64,000 nucleotides of DNA from Mobula hypostoma (Eukaryota): NCBI RefSeq assembly GCF_963921235.1, contig NC_086108.1:17298001-17362000 (forward strand), given 5' to 3'. The notes below the pieces were generated by a model, which was not told the DNA's origin, did no database searches, and worked only from the letters and a program-made list of their open reading frames with translations. Positions 11,237 through 64,000 of the stretch are shown here, one piece after another. The position numbers were made by a program, and so were the translations under genes. The stretch's first letter is position 1. Every line of letters begins with the position of its first letter.

Positions 11237-14157
11237 CGGTTTTCAAGATGGCGCCGGTATCTGGTAACTCTGCGTGTGCTGTCCTGAGCAAACTGCCCTC
11301 TACACTATCCTATACCAGAGAAATCCTTCTAAACCTCCAATCTGCTACACCTAGCAAGATCAACAACACCCTGGCAAAGCTACTGACCCAGCTGGAGACC
11401 ACCACGCCAGAATTGCTTCTTCAACTCCGGACCGCACCTGGACCCAACCAGCGAGGCCCACCACGTTCCCGGAGACCTGCAGGCTGCTACCGTGCCGGAC
11501 AGCTTGGAGACACAGCCCATTCCGACCAGCACCTCTCCGGAGCAGACGACCACACAGAAGTGACGTCGGAGACCTCAAGGTTCCCCAGACGCTTCCCCGG
11601 CTGCTGTAAGTGAGGCCTCCACCGCCGACCTCGGAAATCGAGCAAAAGGTGAAGTATCGTCCCTACTATCTGCCACGGGAATTCACCATACTGACAACAG
11701 TCTACATTCCCCCCCAGGTGTACGTGGAGTGTGCTCTGAATATACTGTATGCCAACATCAGTGAACTTGAGACCAGGTATCCGGAGGCTTTGTTCATTAC
11801 AGCTGGGGACTTTTACCAGGCCAACCTCAGAAAGGCGCTGCCAAAGATATACTAACACATCTCTTGCCCCACTAGAGGCCTGAATATACTTGACCACTGC
11901 TACACAGCAGTCAAGGATGCCTACCGTTCCGTCCCACGACCTCACTTCAGAAAATCGGACCATCAGGCCTTACTCCTCCTCCTGGCTTACAAACAGAAAC
12001 TGAAGCGGGAGGTCACGGTGTCAAAAGTGGTGTTGCGTTGGACGGGGGAAGCAGATGAGGTCCTCCGTGACTGCTTTGAATTGGTGGACTGGTTAGTATT
12101 CAAGGACTCAGCAGCTAATCTCGATGAGTATGCCTCAGCTGTCATGGACTTTATCTGGAAATGCACAGAGCACTGTGTGTCTTGCAAGACAATCTGGGTA
12201 TTCCCTAACCGGAAACCTTGGATGAATTATGAGGTCAAGTCCCTTTTGAAGGCTAGAGCTGTGGCTTTTAGGTCCGGGGATACCAGTCGTTACACGGAAT
12301 CCAGGCGTGAACTCCGGAAAGTCATTAAAGGCGCCAAGAGGCAATATCGAGCCAAGTTGGAAGCCCAGGCTAACCAAAGGGATGCCAGTAGACTACGGCA
12401 GGATCTAAATGAGATCACTGGGTGCAAAGAAAAGGCTGGGAATATCAATAACTGTAGCGCTTCTCTTCCTGACGAACTTAACGTATTCTACGCAAGATTC
12501 GAACAGAAGAGGAGCGTCCCGCTCCGTCTGGATGAACTGGACCTGGGGGCATCGAGATTCATCGTCACCGAGGAGGACGTTAGAAGGGCCTTCCTGAAGA
12601 TAAATCCAAGGAAGGCGACGGGTCGAGATGGCGTCCCAGGATGGGTTCTCCAGGCCTGTGCAAGCGAGCTAGCTGGAGTGTTTGCTGACATCTTCAACTG
12701 CTCCTTGCTTCAGTCTAAGATCCCCTTGTGTTTTAAGAAGGCAACGATAATCCTGGTGCCGAAGAAGAGCAAGGTGGCATGCCTGATGACTATCAGCCTG
12801 TGGCTCTGACACCAATTGCTATGAAGTGCTTCGAGCTATTGGTTATGGCACACATCAACCACAGACTACCGGTCAACCTCGACGTTTTGCAATTTGCCTA
12901 CCGGAGCAACAGGTCAACGGCAGATGCCATCCCTCTGGCCCTACATTCCTCCTTAGAATACCTGGAGAATAAAGACGCATATGTAAGGCTCCTTCTCATT
13001 GACTACAGCTCTGCTTTTAATACCACCATTCCAAATAAACTGATTCCTAAGCTCCGGAACCTGGGCCTTAGCACTTAGATCTGCAGCTGGATCTTCAACT
13101 TCCTCACAGACAGGACCCAGGCTGTAAAAATAGGGGACAAGCTCTCCTCTACAATCACTCTGAGCACCGGTGCCCCACAAGGCTGTGTACTCAGGCCCCT
13201 GCTGTACTCACTGTACACCCATGATTGTGTAGCCAAGTTTCCATCAAACTCAATATATAAGTTTGCTGATGACACCACAATTGTAGGTTGTATCTTGGGT
13301 AATTATGAGTTTGAGTACAGAGAGGAAATTAAGAACCTGGTGGCATGGTGCGAAGACAATAACCTATCCCTCAACATCAGCAAGACGAAGGAATTGGTTG
13401 TTGACTTCAGAAGGAGTAGCGGCCTGCACGACCCCATTTACATCGGTGGTGTGCAAGTGGAACAGGTCAAAAGCTTTCCTCGGGGTCAATATCAAAAATG
13501 ACCTGACTTGGTCCAACCAAGCAGAGTCCACTGCCAAGAAGGCCCATCAGTGCCTTTACTTCCTGAGAAAGCTAAAGAAATTTGGCCTGTCCCCTAAGAC
13601 CCTCACTAATTTTTATAGATGCACTGTAGAAAGCATTCTTCTAGGGTGCATCACAACCTGGTATGGAAGTTGTCCTGTCCAAGACCAGAAGAAGCTGCAG
13701 AAGATTGTGAACACAGCCCAGCACATCACACAAACCAATCTTCCATCCTTGGACTCACTTTACACTGCACACTGTCGGAGCAGTGCTGCCAGGATAATCA
13801 AGGACACGACCCACCCAGCCAACACACTTTTTGTCCCTCTTCCCTCCGGGAGAAGGCTCAGGAGCTTGAAGATTCATACGGCCAGATTTGGGAACAGCTT
13901 CTTTCCAACTGTGATAAGACTGCTGAACGGATCCTGACCCGGATCTGGGCCGTACCCTCCAAATATCCGGACTTGCCTCTCGGTTTTTTTGCACTACCTT
14001 ACTTTCCCTTTTCTATTTTCTATTTATGATTTATAATTTCAATTTTTAATATTTACTATTGATTTGTACTCCAGGGAGCACGAAACGCAGAATCAAATGT
14101 CACTGTGATGATTGTACGTTCTAGTATCAATTGTTTGGTGACAATGAAGTATAAAGT
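11237..14157 (+). mobile_element. Rex/Babar-type LINE with an intact-looking 5' end, partially deleted endonuclease and frameshifted RT
   Basis: [76 protein letters not shown]; tail (gtataaa); TSD ATAATAA at 11230-11236 and 14158-14164. Confidence 0.9.
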
Positions 14158-20223: not shown

Positions 20224-22369
20224 AGGCACATTTAAGTGGTTGAATGTTCATCAACAGGGACGAAAGTGAGGCAAGAAGGGGTGGGGGAGGACAAGATTAC
20301 AGTAGCAGAGAGAAATGAGAGCCTGTTCTAGGTCTGCTTGATTGAAACATGGCTTTATCCCAGCACTGTATATACAGCGATCAGGTTTCTTGATTTACAG
20401 AATGGACCAAACTGCTGATTCGGGAAAGGCAACAGTTGGAGGTGTGGGTTTCATGATAAACTCTCGGTGGTACTCTGATGTAGCAGTTTGTTGAATTTGA
20501 CCCTGACCTTGAACACCTAACAGTCAGATGCCATCTGTGCTATTTATCTAGGGAATCCTCCTCCGTAATTATGACCGTAGTTTACATAGCACCAGCTGCC
20601 GACTGTAATCAAGTGCTTGCGATACTGCATGATGCCATCTCCAAACAAGAAACAGTCCATCCTGATGTATTTGAAATCATAGTCTGAGATTTCAACCAGA
20701 CTTGTTTGAAGAAAACCCTGCCCAATTACCATCATCATACGGTGCCGAGAAAAAGTATTCACCACCTCGGACGTTTTCATGTTTGACTGTTTTACAACAT
20801 TGAATCACAGTGGATTTAATTTGCCTGTTTTTGACACTGATCAACTGAAAAAGACTCTTTTGTGTCAAAGTGAAAACAGACCTCTACAAAGTGTTCTAAG
20901 TTAATTACCAATATAAAATACAGAATAATTGATTGCATCAGTATTCACCACCTTCAAATCAATATTTAGTAGATGCACCTTTGGTAGCAATTACAGCCTT
21001 GTGTCTGTGTGGATAGGTCGCTATCAGCTTTGCACATCTGGACATTGCAATTTCCCCCCATCCTTCTTTACAAAACTACTCAGACTCTGTCAGATTGCAT
21101 GGGGATCGTGAGTGATTAGCCCTTTTCAAGTCCAGCCACATATTCTCAATTGCATTGAGGTCTGGACTCTGACTTGGCCAATCCAGGACATTAACTTCGT
21201 TGTTCTTAAGCCATTCTTGTGTAGCTTTGTCTTTATGTTTGGGGTTATTTTCTTGCTGAAAAAGCAAATCTTCTCCCATGTTGCAGGCTCTTGCAGACTG
21301 CATCAGGTTTTCCTCCAGGATTTCCCTGTATTTTGGTGCATTCAATTTACCCTCTACCTTCACAAGCCTTCCAGAGTTTGCTGCAGTGAAGCATCCCCAC
21401 AGCCTGATGTAGCCATCACCATGCTTCATGGAAAGGATGGTGTGTTTTTAATAATGATGTGCGGTGCTTGGCTTATGTCAAACATAACATTTAGTCTGAT
21501 GACCAAAAAGCTCATCAGACCATAGAACCTTCTTGTACGTGATAGTACATGACCTATCAGTGGCATCTATAGAGCTTTACCAAGAGGGATTTTTTGCAGG
21601 TTGGCAGCAGTTACTTAAAAAGGGAGCTTTGAGAGCGTTTGTCCATTGTACATGGCTTATCAGCAGCATCTATAGAGCTTTACAAGAGGAATTTCTCACA
21701 GGTCCATGGCAGTTATTTAAAATGGGAGCTACGAGAGTGTTTGTCCATTGTATGTGGCCTATCAGCAGCGTCAACAGAGCTCTACAAACTAAATAAAAGT
21801 ACAGAAGGGATAAGTAGAGCAGCCATTGTCGGGAGTAGAAGCATCAGGCTTTGGCTCAAAAGAGGTGTAGGCTCTGTTTAAAGAGCCTGTTAACGTTTCC
21901 TTTTTGTTTTTTTCTCCCCCGTCTCTTACTGTACCGTTTAAATGGCTGTGGTGTGCTCTTCCTGCCAGATGTTGGAGAACTGGGAGATCTGGAATCTCCT
22001 GGAGAACTACATCTGCATGAAGTGCATCCAGCTGCAACTGCTTGAAGACTATGTTAGGGATCTGGAGCAGCAACTGGATGACCTTTGGCTTGTATGGAAG
22101 AACAAGGATATAATTGATCAAAGTTACAGGTAGGTAGTCACCCTGAAGTTGCAGGAAGCGAGTAGCTGAGTGACTGTCAGGAGAAATGGAAATAGGCAGT
22201 TAGAGCAGAGCACCCCGTGGCCGTTCCCCTCAAAAACAGGTATACCACTTTGGATACTTTTGTGGGGATACCTGCCGGGAGAATGCTATGGTGCCCGGGT
22301 TACAGGCACCGAACATGGGTCTGTGGTGCAGAAGGGAAAGTGGGAAAAGAGGGGAATGGTAGTGATAGG

Positions 22370-23740
22370 TGTGACAGGATCCTGAATTATCCCTCTGAAT
22401 TGTGTTTTTAAAAAGAGAGAGAGAGAGTTGTACGACACAAACACCTTGGTATTAAGAGAGAGAGAGAGGCGAAGACTGCTTTGAGATGGTGTTATGGTTT
22501 CCCTGCAGCATGTTTACACTTTTGCCAGCTTCTGTGTTCCTACAGAGAGAGAAGGGAGGAGCTACTTGATGGACAGCTGGTGTTCAGCATGGTGAGATAA
22601 ATAGACACAGACACATGATTTTGGACTCTGGATGAGCTTTGCTGTGCCCACAGGAAGGTAGGTTTTTGGAGGATCGATCAGTGGCTCTCACAATGTGAAA
22701 AAGGTGTGACCGGTGGGGAGTTATTAGGGTGTCCAACCCTCGCCTGGGTTGATAACTCCAGCATTGAAAATGGTGCCCTTGTTGTGGTCACATTCGGTGA
22801 CTTCTAAAGGATTTCGGAGGACAACGGGAAGATCAGCAGCATCAGCTCGCCTGATGCTGATCTATTTCTGCCGGTTCTTTAACCCGTCATGGGGTATGTG
22901 ACAAAATTGTGGGCTCGTCCGGGATTTGAACCCGAGACCTAAAAGGAGGGGGGTGTGACAAAATAGAAAACACTTTGGAGTCTGGTATTGCTATTAACTA
23001 ATACTATTTATTAGTAACTACGCAATACAATAATATAAATTCAGATATATCAAACAGGTTAGCAAAGATTATATAAGATTATAAGTGTGGAAATATAGAA
23101 ACCAAGCTTCTTCAAGCCTAGGAGTAAATGGATACAGTCTTACGTTGATGAGGAAAGTTCAGTTCAGTTCGTGGTATTCAGTTGAGTAGTGATGGAGAGA
23201 GAGAGAGGTGTTTAGTTCTTCAGGTGAGCTGATACCGTCGATCTTCCCGTTGTCCTCCGAAATCCTTTAGAAGTCACCGAATGTGACCACAACAAGGGGA
23301 TCGTTTCCTGTGCTGGAGTTAACAACCCAGGCGTGGGTTGGACACACTAATAACTCCCCACCAGTCACACCTTTTCCACACTGTGAGAGCCACTGATTGA
23401 TTCCCCTGATCGACCCTCCAAAAACCCACCTTTCTGTGGGCACAACAAAGCTCATCCAGTGTCCAAAATCATGTGTCTGTGTCTTCCAGCTGACCTTCTA
23501 TTTATCTCACCATGCTAAACACCAGCTGTCTATCAAGTAGCTCCTCCCTTCTCTTTCTGTAGGAACACAGAAGCTGGCAGTGTCCTTGCAAAAGTGTAAA
23601 CACACTGCAGGGAAACCATAACACCATCTCAAAGAAGTTTCGCCTCTCTCTCTCTTAATACCAAGGTGTTTGTGTTGTACAACACTCTCTCTCTCTTTTT
23701 AAAAACACAGTTCAGAGGGATAATTCAGGATCTCATCTCA
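22370..23740. mobile_element. Non-coding LTR-derived element: LTR(+, internally deleted) - tRNA-Pro copy - PPT - inverted LTR(-), with a 4-bp TSD
   Basis: TG...CA ends, TSD TAGG (22366-22369 and 23741-23744); 22370-22855 is inverted to ~23220-23740; interrupts the CR1 ORF1 at VIG/DS. Confidence 0.85.
22908..22953 (+). promoter_or_regulatory. Extended tRNA-Pro primer-binding site (22908-22940) directly followed by a polypurine tract (22941-22953)
   Basis: TGTGGGCTCGTCCGGGATTTGAACCCGAGACCT is 31/33 complementary to the vertebrate tRNA-Pro 3' end (recalled sequence); then AAAAGGAGGGGGG and TGTGACA. Confidence 0.85.
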
Positions 23741-26700
23741 TAGGGAACTCGATAGTCAGAAAAAACAGACAGGAGATTCTGTGGACATGAATGAGACACC
23801 TAGATAGTATGTTGCCTCCCAGGTGTTGGGATCAGGGATGTCTCAGATTGCATCCACAACATTTTGGAGAGGGAGGGGGAGCAGCCAAATGTCTTGGTAC
23901 ATATTGGTACCAATGACAGAGGAAGGAAAAGCAATGAGGTTCTGAAAAGAGAATTTAGAGAGCTAGGTAGGAAGCAGGACCTCCTGGGCAGTAATTTCTG
24001 CATTGCTACCTGTGCCATGTGCCAGAAACAGGATGATTTGGCAGATAAGTGCGAGGCTGAGAAGCTGGTGCAAGGGGCAGGGCTTCATGTTCTTGGATAA
24101 TTGGGATCTCTTCTGGGGGAGGTATGACCTTTTCAAAAGTGACAGGTTGCACCTGAACCCAAGGGGGACCAATATTCTTGAGGGCAGGTTTGTTAGAGCT
24201 GTTGGGGAGAGTTTAAACTAACTTGGCAGGAGGGTGGGAACCGGAGTGAAGGGACTCAGAAACGGAAAGATGTTAATAAAGTAAAGATAGCGTTCAGTCA
24301 GACTGTCAGGAGGGGCAGGCAGGTGATGGGACTTACTTGCAGCCAACAGGCTGAGTATCAAATCATTAGGGATGCAGAGTCAGAAAGGATAGCAAATACG
24401 GTACTCAAGGTGTTGTATCTAAATGCACATAGTATAAGAAATGAGGTGGATGATCTTGTTGCAATATTACAGATTGCCAGGTATGATGTTGTGGCTATCA
24501 CTGAATCATGGTTGTAGTTGGGAGCTGAATGTCCAAGGTTACATGTTATATCGGAGGGATAGGAAGGTAGGCAGAGAGGGTGATGTGGCTCTGCTGGTAA
24601 AGAATGGCATCAAATCAGTAGAAAGATGTGACATAAGATCAGAAGATTTTGAATCCTTGTGGTTTGAGTTAAGAAGCTGCAAGGGTAAAAGGACATTGAT
24701 GGCAGTTATATACGGACCAGGATATAGGACTGCTAGAAAATGGGGCAGGAGAAATAATAATGAGGGACAAGGAGATGGTTGCTGAACTAAATGAGTATTT
24801 TGCATCAGTCTTTACTGTGGAAGACACTAGCAGAATGGCTGATGTTGTAGTGTGTGAAGGAAGAGAAGCGGGTGCAGTTACCGTTACAAGAGAGAAGGTG
24901 CTCAAAAAATTGAATGACTTAAAGGTACATAAGTCACCTGGACCAGATGAACTGCACCCTAGGGTTCTGAAAGAGGTAGCATTGGAGATTATGGTGGAAT
25001 TAGAAATGATCTTTCAAGAACATTGAACTCTGGCATGGTGCTAAAGGACTGGAAAATTGAAAATGTTTCTCCACCCTTTAAGAAAGGAGGAAGGCAGCAG
25101 AAAGGAAATTATAGACCAGTTAGCCTGACCTCAGTGGTTGGGAAGATGTTAGGTTTGATTGTTAAGGATGAGGTGATGGAGTACTTGGTAACGCAGGACA
25201 AGATAGTACAAAGTCAGCATGGTTTCCTTCAGGGAAAATCCTGCCTGACAAACCTGTTGGAATTCTTTGAAGAAATTACAAGTAGGATGGATAAAGGGGA
25301 TGCAGTGGATGTTGTGTATTTGGACTTTCAGAATGCCTTTGACAAGGTGCCACACATGAGGCTGCTTACCAAATTAAGAACCCTTGGAATTACAGGAAAG
25401 TTACTAACATGGTTAGAGCATTGACTGATGGGTAGGAGGCAGCGAGTGGGAATAAAAGGATCCTTTTCTGATTGGCTGCCAGTAACTAGTGGTGTTCTGA
25501 AGGGGTCAGTGTTGGGACCACTTCTTTTTATGCTGCATATAAATGATTAAGATGATAGAATAGATGGCTTTGTTGCCAAGTTTTCAGATGATACGAAGAT
25601 TGGTGGAGGGGCAGGTAGTGTTGAGGAAACAGATAGGATGCAGAAGATCAGGAAAATGGCAAGAAAGTGGCAAATGAAATACAATGTTGGGAAATGCATG
25701 TTCATGCACTTTGGTAGTAGAAATAAATGTGCGGACTAATTTCTAAACAGGGAGAAAATCCAGGAATCTGAGATGCAGAGGGTCTTGGGAGTCCTTGTGC
25801 AGAACACCTTGAAGGTTAACTTGCAGATTGAGTTGGTGGTGAGGAAGGCAAATGCCATGTTAGCATTAATTTCAAGAGGTCTAGAATACAAGAGCAAGGA
25901 TGTGATGCTGAGGCTTTATAAGGCACTGGTGAGGCCTCACCTTTAATATTGTGAACAGTTTTGGGCCCCTCATCTTATAAAAAGATGTGCTGGCATTGGA
26001 GAGGGTCCAGGACAGGTTCACAAGGATGCTTCCAGGAATGAAAGTGTTATCATACGAGGAACGCTTGATGGCTCTGGGTCTGTACTCACTGGAATTTAGA
26101 AGGATGAGGGGGGAAATCTCATTGTTTCGAATGTTGAAAGCCCTAGACAGAGTAGATGTTTCCCATAGTGGGACAGTCTAGGACAAGAGGGCACTGCCTC
26201 AGGATAGAGGGATGCCCTTTCAAAACAGAGATGCAGAGAAATTTCTTTAGCCAAAGAGTGGTGAATTTGTGGAATTTGTTGCCACATGCAGCTGTGGAGG
26301 CCAGGTCGTTGGGTGTATTTAAGGCAGAGGTTGATAGGTTCTTGATTGGACATGGCATCAAAGGTTATGGGGAGAAGGCCGGGATCTGGGGTTGAGGGGG
26401 GGGAGATAGAAAAAAGGACAGCCATGATTGAATGGCGGAACAGATTCAATGAGCCGGGTGGCCTAATTCTGCTCCTACGTCTTATGGTCTTCTTCCAGCA
26501 GACTTCAGACTCTCCCACATACCTTCTGGCAAACCCTTGCTGAGATTTCATGAGCGATTTTTCAACAGTGGCTTTCTCTTTGCCATTCTCCCATAAAGCT
26601 GCAACTGATGAAGCAGCCAGGCAACAGTTTTTGTATGTGCAGTCTCTCCCATCTCAGCCACTGAAGCTTGTAACTCCTCCAGAGCTGCCATAGGTCTCTT

Positions 26701-33500: not shown

Positions 33501-34760
33501 TAAAGCATCCGTAGGTGCCAGAGGATTGGAGGATAGCTAATGTTGTTCTTTTGTTTAAGAAAGGCTCTAAGAATAAGCTGGGAAATTATAGGTTGATGAG
33601 CCTGACATCAGTAGTGGGTAAGTTAACATAGAAACATAGAAAACCTACAGCACAATACAGGCCCTTCGGCCCACAAAGCTGTGCTGAACATGTCCTTACC
33701 TTAGAAATTATCTAGGGTTACCTATAGCCCTCTATTTTTCTAAGCTCCATGTACCTATCCAGGAGTCTCTTAAAAGACTCTATCATATCCGCCTCCACCA
33801 CTGTTGCCGGCAGCCCATTCCACGCACTCACCACTCTCTGTGTAAAAAATTTACCTCTGACATCCTCTCTGTAACTACCTCCAAGGACCTTAAAACTGTG
33901 CTCTCTCGTATCAGCCATTTCAGCCCTGGGAAAAAGCCTCTGACTATCCACGTGATCAATGCCTCTCATCATCTTATACACCTCTATCAGGTCACCTCTC
34001 ATCCTATAGAGAGAGTGCAGAGGAGACCAACAAGGATGTTGCCTGGATTGGGGAGCACATCCTATGAGAAAAGGTTGAGTGAACTTTGCCTTTTCTCCTT
34101 GGAGCGACAGAGTATGAGAGATGACCTGATAGAGGTGTATAAGATGATGAGAGGCATTGATCATGTGGATAGTCAGAGGCTTTTTTCCCAGGGCTGAAAT
34201 GGCTAGCACGAGAGGGCATAGTTTTAAGGTGCTTGGAAGCAGGTACAGAGGAGATGTTAGGGGTAAGTTTTTCATACAGAGCGTGGTGGGTGCATGGAAT
34301 CCACTGCCAATGATAGTGGTAGAAGCGGATATAATATGGTCTTTTAAGAGAATCTTAGGTAGTACATGGAACTTAGAAAAATAGAGGGCTATGCAATAGG
34401 GAAATTCTAGGCAGTTTCTAGAGTAGGTTACAGGGTCGGCACAACATTTTGGCCAAAGGGACTGTAATGTGCTGTAGATTTCTATGTTCTATTAAACATC
34501 CATTTCTGACACTCTCAATAAAGTTTCTGTTATGGCTACTTCATAGTTCCACATACTGTTCCATGCTCTAAGTTCATTATCTTCACTCATACCATTAAAA
34601 TACATGTACTTCAAGCTGTCAAGACTATTACCTTGCTCCCACCTGCTCTTACTGGTCATGACAGCGACCTTCCTTTTAATTCCTCTACTTTCTGACCTGG
34701 GGCTCTGGTTCCCATCTACCTACTATCACCTTCTTTAAACCCTCGAGAAGCACTAGTGAA
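30560..34760 (-). mobile_element. Old CR1 LINE (segments ~30560-33245 and 34493-34760) with nested Rex 3' fragment (32580-33020) and younger CR1 pieces (33250-34491)
   Basis: Degraded RT and C-terminal ORFs 30944-31153 and 31285-31497; Rex fragment PSGRRYKCLRTLTTRFKNSYYPSTIRHLN. Confidence 0.7.
33627..34491. mobile_element. Two CR1 3' ends joined head-to-head (minus 33627-34005, plus 34006-34491)
   Basis: Both encode RGDLIEVYKMMRGIDHVDSQRLF...; tails point outward at each end. Confidence 0.85.
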
Positions 34761-35184: not shown

Positions 35185-37740
35185 AAGTTGAGTCAAGTCA
35201 AGTTTTTTGTCATTTAACTATATACATGTATATAAAGTACATAACCACAGACTGTATAAAGAAACAAGACAATGTTTCTCTAAACCAGGTTGTAAAACAC
35301 AGTAGTGCACATAACACATGATAACCTATGAAGGTAAGGTGCTCCTGGTGCGGCCTCCTCTACATCGGTGAAACCCGACGCAGATTGGGGGACTACTTTG
35401 TCGAGCACCTCCGCTCTGTCCGCCACAACAGACAGGATCTCCCGGTAGCCACCCACTTTAACTCTGCTTCCCATTCCTATTCAGATATGTCCGTACATGG
35501 CCTCCTCTACTGCCATGATGAGGCTCAGCTTAGGTTGGAGGAACAACACCTCATATACCGTCTAGGTAGTTTCCAGCCCCTTGGTATGAACATAGAATTC
35601 TCCAACTTCTGGTAATTCCCTCCCCCTCCCTTGCTCTATCCCTATTTCACTCTGCCCCCTCCCCCAGCTGCCTATCACCTCCCTCATGGTTCCGCCTCCT
35701 TCTACTACCCATTGTGTTTTCTCCTATTCCTCCTTCACCTTTCCTGCCTATCACCTCCCTGCTTCCACTCCCCCTCCCCTTTGTCTTTCCCCTTACTGGT
35801 TTTTCACCTGGAACCTACCAACCTTCTTCCCACCCTCCCCCCACTTTCTTTATAGGGCCTCTGCACCTTCCCTCTTCAGTCCTGACGAAGGGTTCCGGCC
35901 CAAAACATTGACTGATCGTTTCCACGGATGCTGCCCGACCTGCTGAGTTCCTCCAGCGTGTTGTGAGTGTTGCTTTGATCCCAGCATCTGCAGAGTATTT
36001 TGTGTTTGTGAAGGTAAGGATAAAATCTACAGATGAGTCACACATAAATAACAAACTAAAGTTTATTAATTTTAAATAATGTAAGTTGCAGAATAGATTA
36101 ACCAGTGATGGTTTGAATACGATGTGGCAAGGAGTTCAGATGCCTAAAGGCCTGAGGGAAGAAACTGTTTCTCATCCTGACCATTCTTGTTTTTATGCAT
36201 CTAAGTTTCCTGCCTGATGGTGGAAAATCAAAGAGGATATTGGATGGATGGGTGTGATCCTTAATAATACTAAGGGCCCTGAATACACAGCGATCCTGAT
36301 AAATGTCCTTGATGGATGGTAGGGAGATCCCTATGATCCTCTCAGCTGTTCTCACAGTCCTTTGTAGGGACTTTGAGTCTGATGCTTGATGGCTGCCATA
36401 CCAGATGGAGATGCAGCTTGTCAGGATGCTGTCAGTGGTGCTCCTGTAAAACACAGTTAAGATGGTGGGGGGGGGAAGGTGGGAGAACCTTGCTTGCCTC
36501 AGTATTCCTAGGAAGTGGAGGCACTGCTGGGCCTTCTTGCTCAGGGAGGTGATGTTAAGGGACCAGCTGAGGTAATCCGTGATGTTAACTCCCTGGAAAC
36601 TTGGTGTACAGGGAGCTCTCTACAGGAGGAACTGTCTTTTCACAGAGGGGGATGGTTCATCTGCACCTCCCTGAAGTTCACAATGATTTCCTTTGTCTTC
36701 TCCACATTCAGGTTTAGGTTGTGCTTCTCACACCAATCCACCAGCCACTCCACTTCCTCTTTATACTCCGTCTCATCATCATTCTTGATAAGGCCAAACA
36801 CTGTTGTGTCATCCAGAAACTTGATGACACGGTTTGAGCTGGATCCTGCGACACAGCCATGAGTCAGCAGTGTGAACAGCAGCGGACTGAGCACACAGCC
36901 TTGGGGAGCACCAGTGCTCAGTGTAATGGGACTGGAGACATTGCTGCCCACACAGACTGACTGTGGCCTTTCTGTTAAGAAGTTCAGGATCCAGTTATAG
37001 AGGGAAGTTTTGAGACCCAGCAAGGACAGTTTCCCCTCCAGTTTCTGGGGTTATGATGGTGCTGAATGCCGAACCAAAGTCTATAAACAGCAGCCTGGTA
37101 TATGAGACCCCATTTTCTGGGTGGAACAGGACAGAGTGGAGGGCAGAGGCTATTGCATCATCAGTGGATCAACTTGAATGATAAGCAAACTGGAAAGGGT
37201 CCAATGTAACTAGGAGAAAGGCTTTAAAGTGCTCTATTGCCAGCCACTCAAAGCATTCCATAATGGCTGCTGTTAATGCCACCAGCCGATAGTCATTTAG
37301 GCAGGTTACTGTCGCCTTCTTTGGCACTGGAATGATGGTTGCTGCCTTGAAAACAGAAGGGACAATGGACTGTTCCAGAGAGATGTTGAATATATTTGTC
37401 AGCTGGGCTGCGCAGTCTTTCAGAACCTGACCTGGTACATTGTTGGGCCCCACAGCTTTGTGTGGATTGACTCTGGCCAGGATCTTCCTCACTTCAGTTT
37501 CAGCCAGACGGAGTGTTTGCACCCCTAGGGATGCGCATCAGATTGGCTGTAGAAAACATTCAACCCCTCAAGGAATGAAGCATCCTGGTCAATGACTCAC
37601 AGTGTAGGCATAGTCTGAAAACCTTTGAATTCCATGCCACATGCACCTTGTGTCTCTGGTATCAGAGAAGTCGCTGTAAATTCTCTGAGAATGCTCCCAT
37701 TTTACCTTACTGATGAAGCAGGAAAGCACAGTTCTTGGTG
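35185..37740 (-). mobile_element. 5'-truncated Rex/Babar LINE with Penelope inserted in its 3' UTR
   Basis: ORFs 37169-37522, 36640-37023 ([20 protein letters not shown]) and 36098-36454; tail (caagt)n near 35185-35202. Confidence 0.88.
35340..36008 (+). mobile_element. Penelope-like element 3' part: GIY-YIG endonuclease end plus pLTR
   Basis: ORF 35328-35615 CSWCGLLYIGETRRRLGDYFVEHLRSV...PVATHFN...RLEEQHLIYRL; TSD TGAAGGTAAGG at 35329-35339 and 36009-36019. Confidence 0.92.
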
Positions 37741-39849: not shown

Positions 39850-42800
39850 TAGCAGAGCATCCCTCTGGACATTCCCATCAATAATAAGTATACCGTTTTG
39901 GATACTTTTGTGCAGGATGAGCTTCCAGGGAAATGCCATGGAGACCAGGTTACTGGCACTGAGCATAGGTTTGTGGTGCAGAAGGGAAAGAGGGTGAAGA
40001 GGGGAGTGGTAGTGATAGGAGACTCAATAGTCAGAGAAACAGACAGGAGATTCTGTGAATGTGAATGGGACACCCAGATGTTATGTTGCCTCCCAGGTGC
40101 CAGAGTCAGGGACGTCTCGGACTGTGTCCATGTCACTTTGGAGGGGATGAAGAGCGGTCAGATGTCTTGGTACATATTGGTACCAATGACATAGGAAGGA
40201 AAGCAAAGAGGTCCTGAAGAGAGAATTTAGACAGCTAGGCAGAAAGCTGAGAAGCAGAACCCCCAGGGTAGAAGTTTCTTGATTGCTACCTCTGCCACAT
40301 GCCAGTGAGGGAAGAAACAGGATGATTGGCAGATAAATGCATGGCTGAGAAGCTGGTGCAGGGGGCAGGGATTCAGGTTCTTGGGTAATTGTATCTCTTT
40401 TGGGGGACGTACAAAAGCGACGGGTTGCACCTGAACTCGAGGGGGACCATTATTCTTGTGGGTAGGTTTGTTACAGTTGTTGAGAAGGGTTTAAACTAAT
40501 TTGGCAGGGGGATGGGAATCAGAGTAATGGGACTCAGGATAGGACAGATGGTAAAAAAAGCAAAGATAGTGTGTGGTCAGACTGTCAAGAAGGGCAGGCA
40601 GATGATACCACAAAAGTACAGGCAGCAGGGTGAGTATCAGTGTATTAGCGATGCAGAATCAAAAACTGTAGCAAATATAGTACTCAAAGTATTATATCTC
40701 AATGCACAAAGTATAAGAAATAAGGTGGATGATCTTGTTGCATTATTATAGATTGTCGGGTATGATGTTGTGGCCATCACTGAATTATGGCTGAAGGATG
40801 GTTGTAGTTGGAAGCTGAATGCCCAACATTGTATTAAGTGTTACGAGAATACACATAAAATTAAGATGTTTGCTGGCCTGGGCTAGCATCAGTGGCATCA
40901 GCAGTTGGTCTGCCACCTGCCCTCAGGGGAAGGAGAGATAAGGAACAATGGAGCAGCGTCTGGAGATGTGTAATGAAGGGATGTGGGAGAGAGAGCTGTC
41001 TGGAGCGGCTCCCCCCTTTGAACCCTGAACTGTTTGAAGTGATGGACAGGCGATACCCCAGCAGGGGGATAAAAAGGGACAGGTTCGCTAAGACAGGGAC
41101 ACACACGCCACCCGAGGTAATGAGACCCTGGAAGCGGTGCGCCTCTCACGAGTGGTGAGAAGTACCGGACAACGCACAGGGTGGAAAGGTACGATCAGCG
41201 GGAACCCGGTGTGTGTCCGCCCTTGCCTGGGTGCTGGGTTCACTGCAGAGGATCGACCGCATCTGGAGGAGGGGTCACAGTCGGTGACCTCAGGTGACAT
41301 CACCAAGGACCCGCCCAAAAGTTGCTCGTGAGCAATCTCGCTGGTCTGTGAGTGAAGCTGTGCTGAATGATGAGTTGTTCTCTCTGTCTCTCTTCCCCCA
41401 CCTTGTCCATCGCCATGGCAACGATTACTGCGAACTGAACTTTGAGTCATTTTGAAATTGGTCATTTACCCCTAGACAACGATAGAGCTTGATTGATGCT
41501 GTTATCTTAATTCTGTGCACATGTGTGGTTATCATTGTTGAATTGTTGCATTTATTATCCTTTCGATTACTGTGTTGCTTGTTTCTTTAATAAAACTTTC
41601 TTAGTTCTAGTACTCCAGACTCCAACTGAGTGATCCATTTCTGCTGGTTTGGCAACCCAGTTACGGGGTACGTAACATAAGAAGGTAGGCAGAGGGTGGC
41701 TGCTGCTAAAGAATGGCATCAAATCAGTAGAAAGATGTGGCATGGGAGCAGAAGATGTTGAATCCTTGTGGGTTGAATTAAGAAATTGCAAGGGTAAAAG
41801 GACCCTGATGGCAGTTATATACAGGTCTTCAAGCAGTATCTGGGATGACAACAGGGAATATGAAAGGCTTGTTGAAAGGGGAATGATATGATAGTCATGG
41901 GGTATTTTAACATACAGGTAGATCGAGAAAATCATGTGGTTAATGGATCTCAAGGGAGTGAATTTGTTGAATGCCTATGAGATGGCTTTTTAGAGCAGTT
42001 TGTTTCTGAGCCTGCTAGGGGATCAGCTATACTAGATTGTTATGAAATGAACTGCTGGCAATTAGGGAGCTGAAGGTAAAGGGATTCTTAGGAGGTAGTG
42101 ATCATAATATGATTGAGTTCAACTTGAAATTTGATAGGGAGAAAGAAAAGTCTGACATAGTAGTATTTCAGCAGAGGAAAGGAAATTAACAGTGGTATGA
42201 GAGAGGCCAATGTAAATTGGAAGGAGATGTCTATAGGGATGACAGCAGAGCAGCAATGGCTGGAGTTTCTGGGAAAAATGAAGAAGGTACGGGATAGCTG
42301 TATTCCAAAAACAAAGAAATACTCAAATGACAAAATAGTAAAATGGCTGACAAGGGAACTCAAAGCTAATGTAAAAGCAAAAGAGAGGGCATACAACAAA
42401 GCATAAATCAGTGGGAAGACAAAGGATCAGGAAGCTTTTAAAACCCTACCGAGAGCAACTAAATGAATCAGTCGGAGGGAAAAGATGAAATATGAAAGCA
42501 AGCTAGCAAACAATATCAAGGTGGATAGAAAAAGCTTTTTTAAGTATATAGAAAATAAAACAGAGATGAAAGTGGATATTGGACCGCTAGAAAATGTGGC
42601 TGGAGAAATAATAACCGGGGGACAAGGAGATGGCAAATGAACTAAATGAGTGTTCTGCATCAGTCTTCACTGTAAAAGATGCAGTGTACCAGATATTGAA
42701 TGGTGTGGGGGAAGAGAAGTGGGTGTAGTTACTATTATAAGGGAGAAGGCGCTCAAAAAGCTGAAAGACCTAAAGGTACATAGGTCACCTGGACCAGATG

Positions 42801-57974: not shown

Positions 57975-59337
57975 CTCCTTAGTACTGAACCTTTTAAAAG
58001 CTATACAGTCGCCACAGGCCTTAGCAATAATTAAATGCGAGGCACGCACCTCAGGATGAGGTGAGGTCTCCAAGGGAAATCGGTTTGCAGACATGGTAGC
58101 TAATATAGGTGGCTCTTCAGCAACAACCTGTGCTTCAGACCCCTCAGGTTCAATCGGGAGGGAAGAAGCTCCCTGTGTATATTGATGTCCAGTGGTTGCA
58201 GGAAGCCCAAAATCTTGCCTCACAGCAAGAGAAAATCTGGATGCTACCAGGATACCGGGCTATGGCGTCACCCAGACGGCCGAGTAGTGTGCTCGCGTAG
58301 TTTATTTTTGCCCCTGGCTCGCCTGGCACATGGGCAAAGGAGGGATGCAGTATGCCGTCACTCGACAATGGTATGCCCCAGGGATAACAGTATCTATCGA
58401 GAAGGTAGCACGGACTTGTTTAGTTTGCCAGCAAAACAATAGAGGAAAGACGCCTGCCAGATTTGATCAGCTGCCCCAACCGGAAATGCCTTTCGAAAAC
58501 TTGCAAATTGATTTTGTACATATGAAAGGGGGTTTAGGTATATATTGGTAATAGTAGACATGTTTTCCAGATGGGTGGAGGCCTATCCAAATAGGAGGGA
58601 TGATGCAAGAACTGTGGTGAACATATTGATGAAAGAAATTATACCTAGGTTTGGAATTCCCCGAGAGATAAGTAGCGATAGGGGAACCCATTTTACAAAT
58701 AAATTAGTGCAGGGACTGAAGGAAGCCTTGGGGTTCCAGTGGAAAGTGCATATCCCCTACCAGCCTCAGTCCTCAGGTATGGTGGAAAGAACAAATGGGA
58801 AGATAAAAGCGGCTTTGACAAAAGTTTGTCTGCAAAACTGTCTCGGATGGCCAGATGCACTGCCCTTAGTAATGTACACTCTGCGGAATCAGAAGAATAG
58901 AAATACAGGACTTACCCCTCATGAAATGTTGATGGGGTGGCTTATAACAACAGGAACTAAGCCTCCCATGACCCCAGAAAAGGTAGTGCTAATGTGGAAT
59001 GATGAGAAGACACTGAAATACGCACAAGCGTTGTGTCAGGAGGCGGGAAAATTGTTGTGAGAGGGTCCGGAAAGCCCAGGTATCTTTAACTGAGGGTAAT
59101 GTGCATCTGTTTAAGCCGGGAGATAGAACATATGTGAGATCAATGAATAAAGATTCTTTCTCTCCCAGGTGGAAAGGTCCCTATCTAGTGCTGCTGACGA
59201 CCCGTACAGCCGCTAAGGTGAAGGAGAAACCTGATTGGATGCACACCAGCAGGTGCAAGTTGCACCACGACGAGGACGAAATAAACGCTGAACAATTAGC
59301 ATCTTCCCCGAGAGAGAGGAACGGCGCTCAGAACTAA
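57975..59337 (+). pseudogene. pol: ERV pol 3' part: RNase H C-terminus and integrase (frameshifted)
   Basis: LLKAIQSPQALAIIKCEA..G*.EVSKGNRFAD; H.GKGGM...CLVCQQ; QIDF; VDMFSRWVEAYP; SDRGTHF; GMVERTNG; RWKGPYLVLLTT. Confidence 0.93.
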
Positions 59338-61848: not shown

Positions 61849-64000
61849 TAGAAACATAGACAACCTACAGCACAATATAGGCCCTTCGACCCACAATTCT
61901 GTGCTGAATACGTACTTACTTTAGAAATGACCTAGGGTTACCCATTGCCCTCCGTTTTTCTAAGCTCCATATACCTATCCGGGGTCTTTTAAAGGGCCCT
62001 ATTGTATCCGCCTCCACCATTGTTGCCAGCAGCCCATTCCACCACTCTTTGCGTAAAAAACTTATCCCTGACATCTCCTCTGTACCTTCTTCCAAGCACC
62101 TTAAAACTGTGCCCTCTCATGCTAGCCATTTCACTTTTGAGAAAAAGCCACTGGCTGTCCACACGTTCAATGCCTCTCATCATCTTATACACCTCTATCA
62201 GGTCACCTCTCATCCTCTGCTGCTCCAGGTGAAAAGGCCAAGTTCACTCAATTTATTCTCATAAGGCATGCTCCCCAAACCAGACAACATCCTTGTAAAT
62301 CTCCTCTGCACCCTTTCTATGGTTTCCACATCCTTCCTGTAGTGAGGTGACCAGAACTGGGCACAGAACTCCAAATGGGATCTGACCAGGGCCCTATATA
62401 ACTGTAACATTACCTCTCTGCTCTTAAACTCAATCCCACGATTGACGAAGGCCAATGTACTGCATGCCTTCCTAACCAGACAGTCAACCTGCACAGCAGC
62501 TTTGAGTGTTCTATGGACTCGGACCCCAAGATCACTCTGATCCTCCACACTGCCAAGAGTCTTATCATTAATACTATATTCTACCATCATATTTGACCTA
62601 CCAAAATGAACCACCTCACACTTATCCAGGTTGAACTCCATCTGCCACTTCTCAGCCCAGTTTTGCTTCCTACCAATGTCTCGCTGTAACCTCTGAAAGC
62701 CCTCCACACTATCCACAACACCCCCAACCATTGTGTCATCAGAAAATTTACTAACCCATCCCTCCAATTCCTCATCCAGGTCATTTATAAAAATCATGAA
62801 GAACAGGTGTCCCAGAAGAGATCCCTGAGGCACACCACTGGTCACTGACCTCCATGCAGAATATGATCCATCTACAACTACTCTTTGCCTTCTGTGAACA
62901 GGCCAGTTCTGGATCCACAAAGCGAGGTCCCCTTGGATCCCATGCCTCCTTATTTTCTCAATAAGCCTGGCATGGGGTACCTTATCAAATGCCTTGCTGA
63001 AATCCATATAAACTACATTTACTGCTCGACCTTCATCAATGTGTTTTGTCACATCCTCAAAAAATTCAATCAGACTCGTAAGGCACAATCTGCCTTTGAC
63101 AAAGCCATGCTGACTGTTCTTAATCATATTATGGCTCTCAAAATGTTCGTTAAGTCCTAGCTCTCAGGATCTTTCCATCAACTTACCAACCACTGAAGTA
63201 AGGCTCACTGGTCTATAATTTCTTGGGCTATCTCTACTCCCTTTCTTGAATAAGGGAACAACATCGGCAACCCTCCAATCTTCTGGAACTTCTCTCATCC
63301 CCATTGATGATGCAAAGATCATTGCCAGAGGTTCAGCAATCTTCTCCCTCACCTCCCACATTAGCCTGTGGTACATCTCGTCCAGTCCCGGAGACTTATC
63401 CAACTTGATGCTTTCCAAAAGCTCTAGCACATCTTTCTTAATGTCAAAATGCTCAAGCTTTTCAATCCATTGGAAGTCATCCCTACAATTTCCAAGATCC
63501 TTTTCCACAGTGAATACTGAAGCAAAGTATTCATTATGTACCTCTGCTATCTCCTCCAGTTCCATACACACTTTTCCACTGTCACACTTGTTTGGTCCTA
63601 TTCTCTCACATGTTATCCTCTTGCTTTTCACATGCTTGTAGAATGCTTTGGGGTTTTCTTTAATTCTGCTCGCCAAGGCCTTCTCATGGCTCCTAATTTC
63701 ATTCTTAATCTCCTTCCTGCTAGCCATATAATCTTCTATATCTCTATCACTACTTTGTTTTTGAACTTTTTGTAGCTTTTCTTTTCTTCTTGACTATATT
63801 TTCAACAGCCTTTGTACACCACGGTTCCTGTATCCTACCATCCTTTCTTTGTCTCATTGGAACGTACCTATGCAGAACACCACGCAAATATCCCATGAAC
63901 ATTTGCCACATTTCTGCCGTACATTTCCCCTGAGAACATCCATTCCCAATTTATGCTTCCAAGTTCCTGCCTGGTAGCTTCTTATTTCCCCCTACTCCAA
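61849..64000 (-). mobile_element. Relatively young CR1 LINE ORF2 (runs off the window end)
   Basis: ORFs 63164-63727 and 62210-63127 with the full RT motif set (QHGF, DFSKAFDKV, GVPQGS, SKFSDDT); tail tagaaacataga. Confidence 0.93.

Follow-up and report, generated by a model that had tools for sequence, protein, structure and literature searches.

An inverted LTR pair enclosing a tRNA-Pro copy and a polypurine tract within one target-site duplication of Mobula hypostoma: a probable one-off product of reverse transcription

The window analysed here, a stretch of 64,000 nucleotides from Mobula hypostoma (contig NC_086108.1), is eukaryotic DNA rich in repeats, and it contains fragments of LINE reverse transcriptase (RVT_1 at 24963-25421 and 62213-63163). 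Two frames, at 13287-13937 (plus strand) and 36098-36619 (minus strand), match Pfam ALKBH8_N with E values of about 3.5e-12 and are presumably the C-terminal part of LINE proteins. A LINE-type repeat also occurs as an inverted pair at 33755-33935 and 34182-34362 (181 nt, 80% identity, 246 nt apart). The open frame at 58512-59060 (plus strand) encodes an integrase core domain (Pfam rve, E 1.6e-15), and no match to either LTR of the element described below was found near this frame.

The element occupies positions 22370-23740 (1371 nt), and all of its parts but the right LTR are given here on the plus strand. The 5' part of the left LTR (22370-22854), which is probably U3 and part of R, forms the left arm of an inverted repeat and matches the right arm in 447 of 482 aligned columns. 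About 259 nt are missing from the centre of this LTR, and a small hairpin is predicted at the junction of the loss (22826-22870; DNA fold of -10.6 kcal/mol, z -2.89, equalled by 3 of 200 shuffles). The 3' (U5) end of the left LTR, with a terminal CA (22855-22903), is 77% identical over 47 nt to the 3' end (41631-41677) of a related solo LTR in the window. It is followed by a spacer of 4 nt (22904-22907), which recurs at 22961-22964, by an over-long primer-binding site of 33 nt (22908-22940), which is the complement of the 3' end of mature tRNA-Pro with 2 mismatches, and by a polypurine tract (PPT) of 13 nt (22941-22953). A 7-nt stub (22954-22960), identical to the LTR start (at 22370) and the LTR end (at 22897), leads into the right LTR (22961-23740), which is 780 nt long, lies on the minus strand with its U3 end outward, and lacks its final 36 nt. 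The initial annotation had listed the same parts, from the left LTR to the inverted one, and each of them was found where it had been placed.

The interior of the element is thus 50 nt (22904-22953). A primer-binding site after the 5' LTR and a PPT before an LTR start are both present, and the two LTRs are inverted instead of standing in the canonical direct arrangement, which has one U3 end and one U5 end. TG stands at both outer ends, and the next 6 bases differ between the arms at 4 positions. The window has seven plus-strand occurrences of the stub sequence, TGTGACA, and three of these belong to the element (LTR start, LTR end and after the purine tract). We found no open reading frame of 150 amino acids overlapping the element and no second copy of it in the 64-kb window.

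A 24-nt pattern taken from the sequence that follows the left LTR matched 128 loci, and ARAGORN placed a tRNA-Pro at the match in all 40 of the loci that were given (40 of the 128). Beyond the pattern, five of six window bases agreed with the tRNA-Pro genes, each in 125 to 128 of the 128 matches; the agreement stopped at 22940, and none of the 128 loci agreed at 22941. Over 22911-22940, 29 of 30 bases matched the tRNA-Pro genes. The copy therefore spans from the CCA end back to tRNA position 44, the last 33 nt of mature tRNA-Pro. Since tRNA genes do not encode CCA, the CCA part of the copy, in which 2 of 3 bases match, rests on established knowledge of the mature tRNA. The 128 loci showed no similarity to the LTRs of the element, ARAGORN found no tRNA gene in the window, and the sole match in an Rfam scan of 22000-24200 was a weak tmRNA T-loop (12.1 bits against a cut-off of 47). 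According to the available text of PMC8599865, a normal primer-binding site measures 18 nt, strong-stop synthesis copying 18 nt and halting before m1A58 of the tRNA; when this stop is missing, extra tRNA is copied, and the product is stated there to be unable to integrate.

The purine run is exactly 13 nt with no non-purine base inside it, abuts the tRNA copy without other internal sequence, and starts at the very next base, as would be expected of a trimmed PPT primer. A purine run with TG after it is in itself no rarity (21 in 128,000 nt); the run here leads into the LTR-start 7-mer. Compared up to this shared 7-mer, the LTR end agrees with the PPT junction in 11 of 13 positions. At the inner junction, the LTR end plus spacer is repeated exactly over 11 nt.

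The polarity of the two LTRs was determined with the related solo LTR, which is complete (40839-41677, plus strand; 839 nt, TG...CA) and is flanked by a 4-bp target-site duplication (TSD), TAAG. Read on the minus strand, the right arm is collinear with the solo LTR over positions 206-780, with 68% identity in 528 columns; the alignment score was 108, and the maximum of 60 shuffles was 43. Moreover, 240 of the 259 nt absent from the left LTR align to the solo LTR with 70% identity. From these alignments it follows that the central loss in the left LTR is real and that the right LTR ends 36 nt short. The inner end of the right LTR matches the left LTR over 7 nt ending at 22867, which is 36 nt before the LTR end, in agreement with the earlier description of an inverted LTR without its last ~36 nt. 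The solo LTR likewise fixes both outer ends of the element as 5' (U3) ends, as the initial annotation had proposed, and shows that this clan of LTRs makes a 4-bp duplication. The termini are LTR sequence homologous to the solo LTR, not the transposase-element termini that would mark a MITE.

The solo LTR sits within a second, paralogous copy of the LINE into which the element is inserted, and this copy (39851-40572, plus strand), which lies outside the element, served as an empty-site control for the target site. The element is flanked by TAGG on the left (22366-22369, plus strand) and on the right (23741-23744, plus strand). Identity to the paralogous LINE is 81% over 169 nt for the left flank, TAGG included, and 80% over 571 nt for the right flank starting at TAGG. 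The paralogous copy contains TAGG once, at 40016-40019. The TAGG pair is thus a duplication made by insertion and not a chance 4-mer, which upholds the suggestion of one integrase-type event with a clean TSD. The LINE paralogues are collinear piecewise, and the second has about 1.6 kb of extra sequence (24518-24720 versus 40797-42574), of which 839 nt are the solo LTR. The targets of both insertions of this LTR clan in the window are TA(A/G)G in the same LINE family (n = 2).

We then compared the two arms (22370-22854 versus reverse 23740-23220). There were 447 matches and 35 mismatches (26 transitions and 9 transversions; K2P 0.077). Three blocks, of 11, 15 and 13 nt, are missing from the left arm, with microhomology of 3, 3 and 0 nt at these losses, and the right arm has gaps of 2 and 1 nt. 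The arms therefore do differ by substitutions and small indels, as had been noted. CpG was lost at four sites in the right arm only, at three in the left arm only and at two in both, so that CpG loss was 11 of 28, compared with a non-CpG change of 2.6% per arm. This balanced loss indicates that the two arms aged alike and fits a long residence of both in the chromosome. Because the arms differ by 7.7% with a pattern of CpG decay, the element is old and not an echo of assembly.

Some features of the arms suggested that they were perhaps never identical. The mismatches fall into three clusters (permutation p 0.033), each of the four block losses affects the left arm (p 0.125), and immediately ahead of the inner junction the left LTR is closer to the solo LTR than the right arm is. 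The arms may derive from one template or from two related templates. At the right terminus, 4 of the first 8 bases differ from the left. Taken as proof of two subfamilies (fixed-window binomial p 0.0015), this difference was weakened: a window with 4 differences in 8 somewhere within the arms is common (p 0.23), and two of the four terminal differences fit CpG decay, being opposite decay outcomes at a CpG that the solo LTR retains, which leaves p 0.036 for the remaining ones. Polarising the arm differences by the solo LTR was uninformative: it gave 15 versus 25 in a three-way comparison in which the left LTR tail was misaligned, and 5 versus 15 in a pairwise comparison with a right-arm bias. 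At the large deletion, 6 nt with a 9-nt inverted match might be templated filler; they also align to the solo LTR.

The initial annotation had also proposed that the arms would form a long hairpin, and this potential proved real. In a predicted fold, the arms pair at -837.7 kcal/mol, compared with a mean of -203.5 for 20 shuffles, and they contain seven perfect runs of at least 21 nt. AATAAA occurs at position 729 of the right LTR (window position 23012) and is absent from the left LTR; the first poly(A) hexamer that the plus strand has downstream of 22900 lies at 24275. A transcript starting in the left LTR would, on this model, span both arms. Of 24 sequencing runs listed, 20 share part of the stretch; none contains half of its words (best 0.40), and no RNA run is listed among those that share it.

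Inverted LTRs are known from the inversion circles of M-MLV autointegration, in which integrase attacks its own DNA and the LTRs become inverted. Those circles resemble the element in this respect, but they are without tRNA read-through and are unintegrated. For HIV-1 and M-MLV, the available text of PMC8599865 describes over-extended plus-strand strong-stop DNA, which, like the element, carries over 18 nt of primer-tRNA complement after its LTR; the primer of M-MLV is tRNA-Pro, as in the element. The over-extended product is described in that text as unable to complete synthesis or to integrate, whereas in the element a PPT and an inverted LTR are attached to it and the whole lies inside a 4-bp TSD. 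The nearest integrated case is that of defective HIV-1 proviruses with asymmetric LTRs and inversions, which, in the part of PMC9278108 available, are likewise integrated template-switch products with unequal LTRs. What is described for those proviruses, however, is deletion within one LTR and inversion of internal sequence, and not a pair of outward U3 ends.

TRIMs, including Helenus and Ajax, are described in the accessible portions of PMC6934838 and PMC10886601 as non-coding, with two LTRs and an interior consisting of primer-binding site and PPT, and the animal Helenus makes a 4-bp TSD; the element has a short non-coding interior of the same kind and a TSD of the same length. According to the same portions, TRIMs have direct repeats and measure less than about 1 kb, whereas the element has inverted repeats and measures 1371 nt. 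The tRNA piece also differs, being antisense at the primer-binding site here and a promoter inside the LTR in the TRIM systems of those two sources. DIRS1-like tyrosine-recombinase retrotransposons have inverted terminal repeats as the element does, but DIRS elements, as far as the text at hand of PMC3266345 states, make no TSD and need internal complementary regions, whereas the element has a TSD, a tRNA primer-binding site, a PPT and TG...CA LTRs. The internal copy of the terminus that was seen in the element is 7 nt long and on the same strand. The element works like an integrase substrate yet belongs to neither TRIM nor DIRS. Searches of open-access text yielded no description of an inverted-LTR layout within one TSD.

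Our favoured reading, which we hold to be probable, is that an LTR retroelement gave rise here to one reverse-transcription product that was a dead end, that integrase inserted this product a single time by its two U3 ends, and that the centre of one arm was lost afterwards. What is observed is the set of parts in their order, with the polarity and the TSD; for the assembly we infer the following steps. Plus-strand strong-stop synthesis would have overrun A58 of the tRNA and halted at position 44, leaving a tail that could not make the normal strand transfer. Template jumps of reverse transcriptase would then have stitched together three plus-strand pieces, namely the over-long strong-stop DNA, the PPT with the first 7-8 nt, and a second plus strand ending 36 nt before the LTR end. 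The minus strand of the window can be read as one such synthesis, in which the 780-nt strand would prime on the PPT fragment, copy to its 5' end, jump to the 3' end at which the tRNA copy had stalled, and continue to the far U3 end. Alternatively, at the inner junction, the LTR end plus spacer may have snapped back onto a 4-nt match 36 nt upstream. The exact 11-nt repeat there speaks for the snap-back, and the 4-nt match is available at only 6 of 777 sites of the right arm. Mutual copying or fill-in would give a blunt palindrome of 1.6 kb with 780-nt arms, a spacer of 93 nt and U3 at both ends, which integrase would have inserted with a 4-bp stagger. Integrase most likely still accepted the faulty product because neither end would have appeared abnormal to it. 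A one-sided central deletion and ordinary decay would have followed in the chromosome.

Several observations favour this origin as a reverse-transcription product. The tRNA copy is at the position of the primer-binding site, read-through past A58 is a known strong-stop failure in the available text of PMC8599865, one TSD encloses all of the parts, and the empty site is single. Acceptance of two U3 ends by integrase is plausible because Ty1 integrase, in the part of PMC8487063 at hand, performs concerted integration in vitro with a single type of donor and prefers U3. The central deletion ends at most 13 nt from the inner end of the stem and widens the spacer of the palindrome from 93 to 365 nt. 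By analogy, it resembles the symmetry-breaking deletions that stabilise mouse palindromes in the available text of PMC8701086; short spacers can also stabilise them according to that text, and it is conceivable that the palindrome was already stable with its 93-nt spacer, which counts against our reading. Also against it, the arms may never have been identical, at least two template jumps are needed, only one locus is known, and read-through products are stated to be non-integrating in the accessible text of PMC8599865. The initial annotation had left the origin as an either/or. Its aberrant reverse-transcription product gains support from the empty site and the solo LTR, and its TRIM/MITE-like mobile family loses ground to the inverted repeats and the single copy in the window.

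Other explanations were weighed against the same observations. The 50-nt interior might come from a minimal TRIM-like family of the ordinary kind, whose LTRs are direct, the inversion alone being an accident of this copy, through fold-back of a cDNA end, loss of the 3' LTR between 7-nt terminal repeats and integration via two U3 ends. The 7-mer shared by LTR start and end, the 11-of-13 match with the PPT junction, and TRIM interiors that can be shorter than 100 nt (in the part of PMC6934838 available) speak for such a course; since it takes one step more than a direct reverse-transcription product, and no such element is present in the window, we consider it unlikely. The TSD could also record two independent insertions into one target, in which a mini-element entered at TAGG, a reverse LTR then entered at the right TAGG, and the resulting tail-to-tail palindrome was collapsed by deletion. 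This is quite unlikely: the same 4 bases must have been hit again with an identical stagger, a mini-element must already have been present, and nearly all of its 3' LTR must have been lost. The possible subfamily-level differences between the arms would suit two sources, but that case is weakened by the two of four terminal differences that are outcomes of CpG decay; a target preference is possible, given the similar TAAG target of the solo LTR (n = 2). Integrase may instead have attached two separate cDNAs by their U3 ends, one to each strand of a single target, with host end-joining fusing the inner ends. Two-donor concerted integration is the standard in vitro reaction in the available text of PMC8487063, and the inner junction has microhomology, but the tRNA-to-PPT joint is left unexplained and needs reverse transcriptase, and two cDNAs with free U3 ends are required at one site. 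We regard this course as very improbable.

We give equally little credence to a mobile non-autonomous inverted-LTR family spreading via two U3 att ends. A primer-binding site, a PPT, TG at both termini and a TSD are all present, as such a family would need, but the element falls outside both TRIMs and DIRS elements, the arms diverge by 7.7%, and the 64 kb hold no second copy. To our knowledge, integrases do not excise, which further counts against it. It is unlikely because there is no direct R repeat to rebuild the ends: by the canonical mechanism, a transcript from either LTR would meet only antisense R at its 3' end, so that minus-strand transfer would be unable to rebuild them. Inverted duplications are a known artefact of long reads, and the locus could in principle have been assembled from a chimeric fold-back read. 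Such a read would yield near-identical arms and no TSD; the 35 arm substitutions with their transition and CpG bias, the block indels, and a TSD that matches an independent empty site make this explanation extremely unlikely.

The element is probably dead and a one-time product that does not represent a new mobile family, and it cannot be copied again by the normal route. A bolder and rather doubtful idea is that tRNA read-through products, held to be unintegrable, have been repeatedly rescued in this lineage by folding back into two-U3 palindromes that integrase accepts. If so, there should be recurrent short inverted-LTR insertions, representing many independent events or even a self-propagating family, and each insertion could give hairpin RNA against its own LTR family; the hairpin idea comes from the loss of the poly(A) signal in the left LTR and the seven perfect runs. 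LTR finders that demand direct repeats would miss such loci. Without recurrence or expression, the element would be a curiosity. As a single fossil, it would be germ-line evidence for reverse transcriptase reading 33 nt into the primer tRNA and for integration via two U3 ends, both otherwise seen in vitro, and a counter-example to the statement, in the available text of PMC8599865, that read-through products cannot integrate. If recurrent, such insertions would let an LTR family produce hairpins that silence the family itself.
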